Below, one piece after another: positions 411-30,353 of a stretch of DNA of 64,000 bases. The stretch is from Octopus vulgaris (Eukaryota): assembly GCA_951406725.2 (NCBI GenBank), contig OX597824.1:76508001-76572000 (forward strand), read 5' to 3'. Numbering within the stretch: the stretch's first letter is position 1; the number at the start of each line of letters is the position of its first letter. The notes beneath the pieces were generated by a model. The model had not been told where the DNA came from. It was given only the letters and a program-made list of their open reading frames with translations, and did no database searches. A program made the position numbers and the translations under genes.

Positions 411-468
411 ATATATATATTTATTATTATTAAAGTGTCGTTACCATTGTTATTATTATTATTATCAT

Positions 469-519
<51 letters not shown>

Positions 520-601
520 TAATAATAATAATAATAATAGTTATAATTATAATTGTAATAAAATGGCCAGCAAGTTTAACCTATATAGGTAAAATATACA
601 A

Positions 602-950
602 ATAAATAGAGTAGGCTATCAGAATATCACTTGCCAGGAAGAGGAACTACACTCAAAACCACAATTTTCTCACTATTAATGAATACGTACGGTGTAATGT
701 GATGGATATTTTCAAAAATAGATGAATATAGTGGGCCTGGCTGACGATCCTTCAGTACAAAAGTAGTAAAGGTGAAATCAATTGATACCAGGATATCTGT
801 TTCTTGCTTTTGCAGTTTATATAAGATAAGCCTATTCTATTATATCCGTTGCATTCACCGTGCGTATTTATTAATAGTGAGAAATTTGTGGTTTTGAGGT
901 GTTAGCTCCTCTTTCTAACAAGTGGTGTTCTGATACCCTACTGTATTTAT
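602..950 (+). mobile_element. Foldback element (arms 602-709 and 842-950) with a hammerhead in the loop; Penelope-pLTR or retrozyme-like
   Basis: Arms are ~85% reverse-complementary by eye; right end abuts (TA)n. Confidence 0.75.
736..792 (+). ncRNA. Type I hammerhead ribozyme motif
   Basis: cctgg-CTGACGA-t-cctt..aagg-t-GAA-atcaattgat-A-ccagg: stem I cctgg/ccagg, intact core, palindromic stem III, AUA cleavage triplet. Confidence 0.85.
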
Positions 951-6768: not shown

Positions 6769-6808
6769 TTAGGGTTAGGGTTAGAGTTAGGGTTAGTTAG
6801 GGTTAGGG
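6769..6808 (+). repeat. Short interstitial (TTAGGG)n-like cluster
   Basis: ttagggttagggttagagttagggttagttagggttaggg. Confidence 0.8.
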
Positions 6809-12623: not shown

Positions 12624-13389
12624 TCTTTTCTACTCTAGGCATAAGGCCTGAAATTTTTAGGGAGGGAGCCAGTCGCTTAGATCGACCCCAGTACGCAAAT
12701 GGTGCTTAATTTATCGACCCCGAATAGGCAAAGTCGACCTCGGCAGAATTTGAACTCAGAACGTAGCGGCAGACGAAATACCTATTTCTTTACTACCCAC
12801 AAGGGGTTAAACACAGAAGGGACAAACAAGGAAAGACAATCGGATTAAGTCGATTATATCGACCCCAGTGCGTAACTGGTACTTATTTAATCGACCCAGA
12901 AAGGATGAAAGGCAAAGTCAACCTCGGCGGAATTTGAGCTCAGAACATAGAGACAAACGAAATACCTATTTCTATTTCTTTACTACCCACAAAGGGGTAC
13001 ACACAGAGAGGACAAACAAGGACAGACAAACGGATCAAGTCGATTATATCGACCCCAGTGCGTAACTGGTACTTATTTAATCGACCCCGAAAGGATAAAA
13101 GGCAAAGTCGACCTCGGCGGAATTTGAACTCAGAACGTAGCGGTGGACGAAATACCTATTTCTTTACTACCCAAAAGGCGCTAAACACAGAGAGGGCAAA
13201 CAAGGACAGACAAACGGATTAAGTCGATTATATCGATCCCAGTGCGCAACTGGTACTTAATTTATCGACCCCGAAAGGATGAAAGGCAAAGTGGACCTCG
13301 GCAGAATTTGAACTCAGAACGTAACGGCAGACGAAATGCTGCTAAGTATTTCGACCGGCGTGCTAACGTTTCTGCTAGCTCGCCGCCTT
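12624..13389 (-). mobile_element. Tandem array of four SINE family B units
   Basis: ~185-190-bp period; only the rightmost unit keeps the head (RC aggcggcgagctagcaga); junction cgaaata|cctatttc at 12781, 12965 and 13155. Confidence 0.9.
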
Positions 13390-29702: not shown

Positions 29703-29749
<47 letters not shown>

Positions 29750-29756
<7 letters not shown>

Positions 29757-30353
29757 TTAGTGAATTGAAGAAATGGAGTTGAACGAAGATTGAACAGAAA
29801 TCGTTTTATTGCATTCTACACGTGTTTCGAAAGGCACAATTTACCAAATTCCGATTGAATAAGGAGACCATATTGTGTCTTTCTCTTCAGGAAGAAATAG
29901 GAAATCCGTTGGAAAAAGCAAAAACAGAACAGAGGCGGAGCAAAACAAATCGAACGCGGCTCCTAAGATAAACAGTTTGGCCATGGGCTCTTAGGAGCCG
30001 CGTTCAATTTGTTTTGCTCCGCCTCTGTTCTGTTTTTGCTTTTTCCAACGGATTTCCTATTTCTTCCTGAAGAGAAAGACACAATATGGTCTCCTTATTC
30101 AATCGGAATTTGGTAAATTGTGCCTTTCGAAACACGTGTAGAATGCAATAAAACGATTTCTGTTCAATCTTCGTTCAACTCCATTTCTTCAATTCACTAA
30201 TAATATTAAAATTCAATTATCCGCACCAACGCACGGTTGCAACACCATATGGTTGTACCTCCAACCGTGCTGTCTTCTGCTGTGATTTTTGCTACCAAGG
30301 TATCGGTTAAACTTTTGATTAATCTGCAACAAGATTATTCATCTTCCTATTTC

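Follow-up and report, generated by a model that had tools for sequence, protein, structure and literature searches.

A hammerhead-bearing inverted repeat in the Octopus vulgaris genome is probably an aged insertion of a non-LTR retrozyme

Near the start of the window analysed here, a stretch of 64,000 nucleotides of the Octopus vulgaris genome, two arms (602-709 and 842-950) pair into a rod of about 350 nt whose loop holds a hammerhead ribozyme motif. The locus raises the question of whether this rod is an intrinsically structured, retrozyme-like RNA element, as proposed from the letters alone (the sequence-only reading), or the outcome of how some other repeat was inserted. Our analysis indicates that the locus is probably one aged insertion of a non-coding hammerhead repeat of ~420 nt, a non-LTR retrozyme likely mobilised by Penelope-like machinery, in which the forward copy is longer than the inverted one that faces it head to head, and the two together form the rod. 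The family is likely new, within the known class of ribozyme-bearing mobile elements, and the rod is likely not an RNA in its own right. The arms paired as first described, and the rod folded at -165.7 kcal/mol on the forward strand (z -17.1 against shuffles) and at -145.7 kcal/mol on the reverse strand (z -18.2). Such extreme values on both strands are expected for any inverted repeat.

The loop possessed an intact type I hammerhead with an extended stem I on the forward strand (727-800; motif 736-792) and a predicted cut after A787, bearing out the sequence-only reading on this point. By sequence, it had the core, the three helices and the open stem I of that type: stem I paired 736-740 with 788-792 (5/5 pairs), the core comprised CUGACGA (741-747) and GAAA (774-777), and the palindromic stem III of three pairs lay at 778-785. 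Stem II opened with U748.U773, followed by four Watson-Crick pairs. The G10.1-C11.1 pair at the base of stem II was replaced by U.U both in this copy and in the majority sequence of its subfamily (A), and the canonical G-C was present in subfamilies B and C. A U.U at this position is a described working variant: axolotl HHR_Amex2 has it, and 22% of the monomer cleaved within 1 h, with better cleavage of the dimer (PMC7229834). Rfam gave no match in the window at gathering scores, and none of the 24 weak matches within 550-1000 was to a hammerhead family. The window hammerhead on its own was no more stable than shuffles (z -0.2). Its core was intact here and in 9 of 36 aligned copies, and across the 36 copies the core was no better conserved than the rest (0.88 versus 0.85), as expected for dead copies. 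With a single hammerhead at the locus, no unit-length RNA could be released from it.

We searched the 2.8-Gb genome (227 contigs) for related sequences. The first search returned at least 88 matches, most of which covered only query positions 100-370 (the hammerhead and the right arm) and lacked the left arm; they formed no family co-terminal with the rod, and the inverted pieces ranged from about 30 to about 370 nt. The flanks of the matches showed that the family extends by another 100 nt or so on the 5' side and 50 nt on the 3' side, with an (ATT)n run beyond the 3' extension and then the beginning of the next unit. From 83 loci, reduced to 53 when 30 were dropped as duplicates, a profile yielded an ORF-less monomer of about 420 nt; four fold-back pseudo-hits and the pieces from the window itself were left out before the majority sequence was taken. 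A single old insertion, likely multiplied by segmental duplication, is present on two contigs in the near-identical loci L059, L060 and L065, which count as three of the 53. Further searches yielded subfamily B (22 loci) and subfamily C (25 loci), giving at least three subfamilies with subfamily A, to which the window copy belongs. Twelve pieces continued directly into the next unit as partial head-to-tail tandems. Among the best 40 of 179-267 candidates per search, we found no arrays longer than about two units and, in the aligned copies, no tandem pair with two intact cores. Copies were old (75-90% alike), and an exact 29-letter motif occurred at only three places in the search, which argues against a large young subfamily A. 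The family was also present in contigs of runs X1, X2, X3, X5, X7 and X8 (organisms A to E), which are silent on expression. Being ORF-less, within roughly 150-450 nt and furnished with one type I hammerhead, the monomer has the size and content that would identify a non-LTR retrozyme. About 6 of 86 copies had their 5' end within 208-216, near the cleavage site, a weak excess given that the borders are imprecise. A further 14 of 86 ended within 91-120, compared to 0-8 in other 30-nt bins, a count biased by a first query that began near position 107.

A stem of the monomer, here called P0, closes the hammerhead domain, with its 5' strand before and its 3' strand after the hammerhead. In 36 copies of subfamily A, 85% of cells in the 27-pair helix of P0 were paired, and 83.5% of cells were paired over the named structure as a whole, compared to 38-49% when it was slid. 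Cells with double changes numbered 51 in these copies versus 32.8 in shuffles, a type of count that relatedness inflates; pairs with double changes showed no excess in the same copies (17 versus 17.3), and RNAalifold found no consensus structure in the 36 decayed copies. Between subfamilies, the core and palindrome were identical in the three majority sequences, and stem I, stem II, the loop II helix, the post-ribozyme hairpin and P0 kept their pairing with different letters. Since these compensatory changes occur across majorities that are only 72-82% alike over the domain, themselves reconstructions from decayed copies, the monomer appears to have been under selection as a structured RNA. 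P0 comprised 32-37 pairs in the majorities, with 4, 8 and 7 G-U pairs on the forward strand in A, B and C, respectively. Folds of the domain favoured the forward strand in B (z -6.9 versus -5.2) and C (-11.3 versus -5.4) and hardly in A (-8.0 versus -7.4), and the whole monomer of subfamily A had no strand preference (z -7.6 versus -8.4). On the forward strand, single full-length copies (n=13) gave z values of -0.6 to -4.0, compared to -7.6 for the majority. The intrinsically structured, retrozyme-like element that had been proposed therefore seems to be present as the ~420-nt monomer, ORF-less, in partial tandems and with covarying stems; the 350-nt rod is not that element.

The interval first reported, 602-950, was too narrow for the insertion, whose inverted piece extends left to about 550 and probably to 427. 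On the left, a (TA)n run at 409-420 is the likely target site and insertion border. It is followed on the reverse strand by the probable tail end of the inverted copy (427-452), which corresponds to the first ~45 nt of the next monomer and matches it at the expected place in 22 of 26 letters, a weak match that 40 of 300 shuffles equalled. Next comes an expanded (ATT)n run (453-549, reverse strand), internal to the monomer and found between units at other loci; the tandem array of (ATT)n/(TAA)n spans 472-561. The inverted partial copy proper (550-690, reverse strand) matched the profile over monomer positions ~285-422, the 3' third, and was identical to the family majority at 125 of 141 positions; the 602-690 portion of the left arm falls inside it. 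The junction zone with the 5' strand of P0 lies at 681-711 on the forward strand, and a comparison of fits places the switch from inverted to forward near 690: across 671-690 the inverted copy fitted better (9/10 and 8/10 versus 4/6 and 6/10), and across 691-711 the 5' strand of the monomer did (10/10 and 9/11 versus 8/9 and 6/11). From there a forward, 5'-truncated copy (690-950, forward strand) matched the profile over monomer positions ~110-378, with 232 of 260 positions identical to the majority. It includes the 3' strand of P0 (840-869, forward strand), the partner in the 27-pair helix with compensatory changes in the subfamily majorities. A second (TA)n run, detected by sequence and as a tandem repeat (944-973), is the likely target site at the right border. 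Both insertion ends thus sit in (TA)n runs, where a target-site duplication is not readable, and the surrounding genome is dense in microsatellites. The locus itself is not a head-to-tail tandem and held no RT plus GIY-YIG ORF. Four sub-lineage states and a 1-nt deletion were common to both arms, pointing to the same template lineage for the two. The inverted piece carries about 45 nt or more beyond the 3' end of the forward copy and so is not a fold-back of it; for the same reason, we rejected the fold-back of a single cDNA.

Our recount of the arm differences across 602-709 agreed with the sequence-only reading: eight gave G-U pairs on the forward strand, three on the reverse strand, and three were transversions. 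The 8/11 share was not significant (one-sided binomial, 0.11). Three of the eight, at 700, 701 and 703, belong to P0 and are not arm decay: U703 occurred in 46 of 48 copies and G848 in 53 of 69, and 700-701 are sub-lineage states. The outer-arm differences were no family property either, being private states of this copy; the nine within 602-680 were all minority states in the family, and the pairs at 681 and 688 were minority states under an inverted or a forward reading. CpG decay, raised earlier as a source of some differences, fits position 688, a CpG change absent from the second haplotype (run X1), and not the three pairs of P0. The G-U excess is best read from these states as partly the monomer's own stem (three pairs) and partly decay. 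Inverted pieces of variable length, together with private arm differences, are what the sequence-only reading had itself named as the mark of an ordinary inverted pLTR. The true arms differed by about 11%, or 5-6% each since insertion. A published rate equates a distance of 0.065 with 18 million years (PMC13282606) and, if it applies here, the insertion would be roughly 15 million years old.

Head-to-head joins were found at 27 of the 53 loci, a count from which a microsatellite pseudo-junction at L059 had been dropped. Their positions were scattered along the monomer and the inverted length was variable, with only two of 27 (the window locus and L010) in register with P0. Copies fell into two 3'-end classes, a short one ending near 345-399 and a long one that reaches the unit end and in many cases crosses into the following unit by about 45 nt; in the window, the inverted copy is of the long class and the forward copy of the short class. 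By hand count, 23 of the 27 inverted loci paired a long with a short end, two were short/short, none was long/long and two had an internal end, and long/short pairing in 23 of the 25 classifiable inversions has a P of about 1e-5. Most copy ends at other loci adjoined (TA)n or (CA)n runs, an observation without a null comparison in a genome rich in such runs. Two loci departed from the usual layout. At L071:2407-2732, an inverted piece (monomer 58-156) and a forward piece (202-422) did not overlap, an arrangement that we take to resemble the twin-priming inversions of L1. L083 had a 570-nt spacer with terminal inverted repeats that looks like a later DNA-transposon insertion; its ORF list, inspected by eye, held no Penelope-like ORF.

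The layout read from these loci, in which a 5'-truncated copy is inverted and only one end has a tail, is that of a Penelope-like insertion; for Penelope, an inverted pLTR with a one-sided tail has been described (PMC3846280, PMC8557442). A purified Penelope protein cleaves both strands of the target and extends them, with two start sites between which the tail lies (PMC11167929). We also looked for a partner element. GIY-YIG matches were plentiful (best 150 of 6136 candidates), and the genome contained intact, Neptune-like ORFs of 781 aa with RT and GIY-YIG domains and a cysteine linker before the endonuclease, a feature given for Neptune and Nematis (PMC8557442). The 3' ends of intact Penelope elements also adjoined (TA)n. 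The 3' end of the abundant intact Penelope had no match to the monomer, and among 50 GIY-YIG loci the monomer was not found as the terminal repeat of an RT plus GIY-YIG ORF; one good and one weak match among them were not positioned in that way. At one locus (L097:2886-3233), which gave subfamily C, a diverged monomer and a Penelope remnant shared one (TA)n run, which each faced with its tail. The two are in opposite orientation across the run, and we read them as two insertions into the same target.

Several other features of the genome and the window were recorded. An abundant, apparently young Neptune-like element with the 781-aa RT plus GIY-YIG ORF (L117:68-3768; G000 C6) has a 479-aa open frame preceding that ORF, without a convincing Pfam match. 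The 3' end of this element (L117:4655-4690 and L097:2620-2760) carries a hammerhead-like motif with a U3-A8 core variant, identified by eye and doubled in L097. Within the window, a second, unrelated head-to-head palindrome (29749-30208) has nearly identical 220-nt arms, each bearing a hammerhead-like motif whose stem II has a long insert; the cores lie at 30067 (forward strand) and 29890 (reverse strand). The palindrome adjoins (TA)n at its left end and is likely a young Penelope stub. The window also contained a tandem array of 3.6 copies (12671-13337), whose 184-nt unit belongs to a common SINE-like repeat, and a short interstitial TTAGGG run of seven copies (6769-6808).

Three other explanations of the locus deserve weight. 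The monomer could be the pLTR of an autonomous Penelope-like element that has decayed or was not found, with the copies as its 5'-truncated stubs. In its favour, the joins in inverted orientation, the tail and the microsatellite targets are each characteristic of Penelope, and each search covered only the best 40 candidates. We nonetheless regard this as unlikely, as the 12 pieces that reach 5' of the monomer enter another monomer, the 3' end of the abundant intact Penelope in this genome differs from that of the monomer, and an extended stem I with a three-pair palindromic stem III is the canonical retrozyme build, not the minimal hammerhead that PMC4209133 describes for autonomous elements and that differs from the motif here.

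Far less probable still, indeed barely credible, is a reading of the 350-nt rod as the RNA unit, in which selection that preserves G-U pairs would act on the arms of a fixed, rod-shaped retrozyme. The very stable fold of the rod, more so on the forward strand, the eight G-U pairs versus three and the join of L010 in the same register would fit such a unit. However, there was no co-terminal family, inverted pieces differed in length and junction, and the element runs past both ends of the rod. The differences within 602-680 were balanced (three G-U on each strand and three transversions), the second haplotype restored Watson-Crick pairs at 635, 665 and 688, and one hammerhead cannot free a unit-length RNA. 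Alternatively, the insertion might at first have lacked the inverted arm, with fold-back repair of the DNA or recombination at the internal stem adding it later; the join in register with the 27-pair stem speaks for this course. We consider it improbable, given the sequence in the inverted piece that is missing from the 3' end of the forward copy and the long/short pairing in 23 of 25 loci.

The preferred reading, an aged retrozyme insertion made by Penelope-like machinery, suggests the following course of events. The template would have been a multimeric or circular transcript. A Penelope RT-endonuclease would have cut the (TA)n target, and each of the two target ends would then have primed a cDNA that began at its own 3' start site. 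At the window locus these cDNAs may have annealed via complementary copies of P0, which would leave the arms in register and the rod seamless, and the copy would then have decayed. More tentatively, the genomic copies may record two-ended Penelope priming, with two fixed start sites separated by about 90-100 nt and the closing stem acting as both a stalling point for the reverse transcriptase and an annealing patch; we hold this as a possibility rather than as the expected outcome.

Like the metazoan non-LTR retrozymes described by Cervera and de la Pena (2020; PMC7229834), the octopus family is ORF-less, AT-rich and a few hundred nt long; each unit has a single type I hammerhead, repeats run head to tail, and the sequence is highly paired. 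Its unit is longer (about 420 nt versus 350-390 nt in mussel retrozymes; PMC7229834), and its copies are old, with no long array among the candidates scored, and head to head at half of the loci, whereas the word 'inverted' is absent from the main text of that paper. With endonuclease-bearing Penelope-like insertions (PMC3846280, PMC8557442, PMC11167929) it shares partial tandems, an inverted 5'-truncated copy, a one-ended tail, microsatellite or AT-rich targets and a hammerhead in the repeat. It differs from Penelope-like elements, as these sources portray them, in having no ORF, a canonical and not a minimal hammerhead, and a tail of about 90-100 nt including the (ATT)n run versus 30-40 nt. 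A recent preprint proposed animal retrozymes as non-autonomous Penelope derivatives and, as 'active', took two consecutive units with complete hammerheads (bioRxiv 10.64898/2026.07.22.740005); the build and insertions of the octopus family agree with that proposal. Common to the preprint's retrozymes and the family here are the proposed dependence on Penelope enzymes, co-occurring autonomous elements and many dispersed monomers. The preprint argues from co-occurrence and from homology to pLTRs, with vertebrates as its main material; the argument made here is from insertion structure in a mollusc-type genome in which no homologous pLTR was found. Our literature search, with most subscription papers outside its scope, found no paper on octopus retrozymes, and ribozymes are unmentioned in the main text of an Octopus repeat annotation.

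As a dead copy of an old family, the window locus is of little interest alone. Elsewhere, the Penelope link of animal retrozymes rests mostly on co-occurrence and pLTR homology, and in the octopus family the copies that have the build of a retrozyme also bear the marks of Penelope insertion, under a strong long/short rule. If the account of two-ended priming is true, it would tie the spread of retrozymes to Penelope mechanics in a mollusc and would provide a testable account of how inverted pLTRs form.
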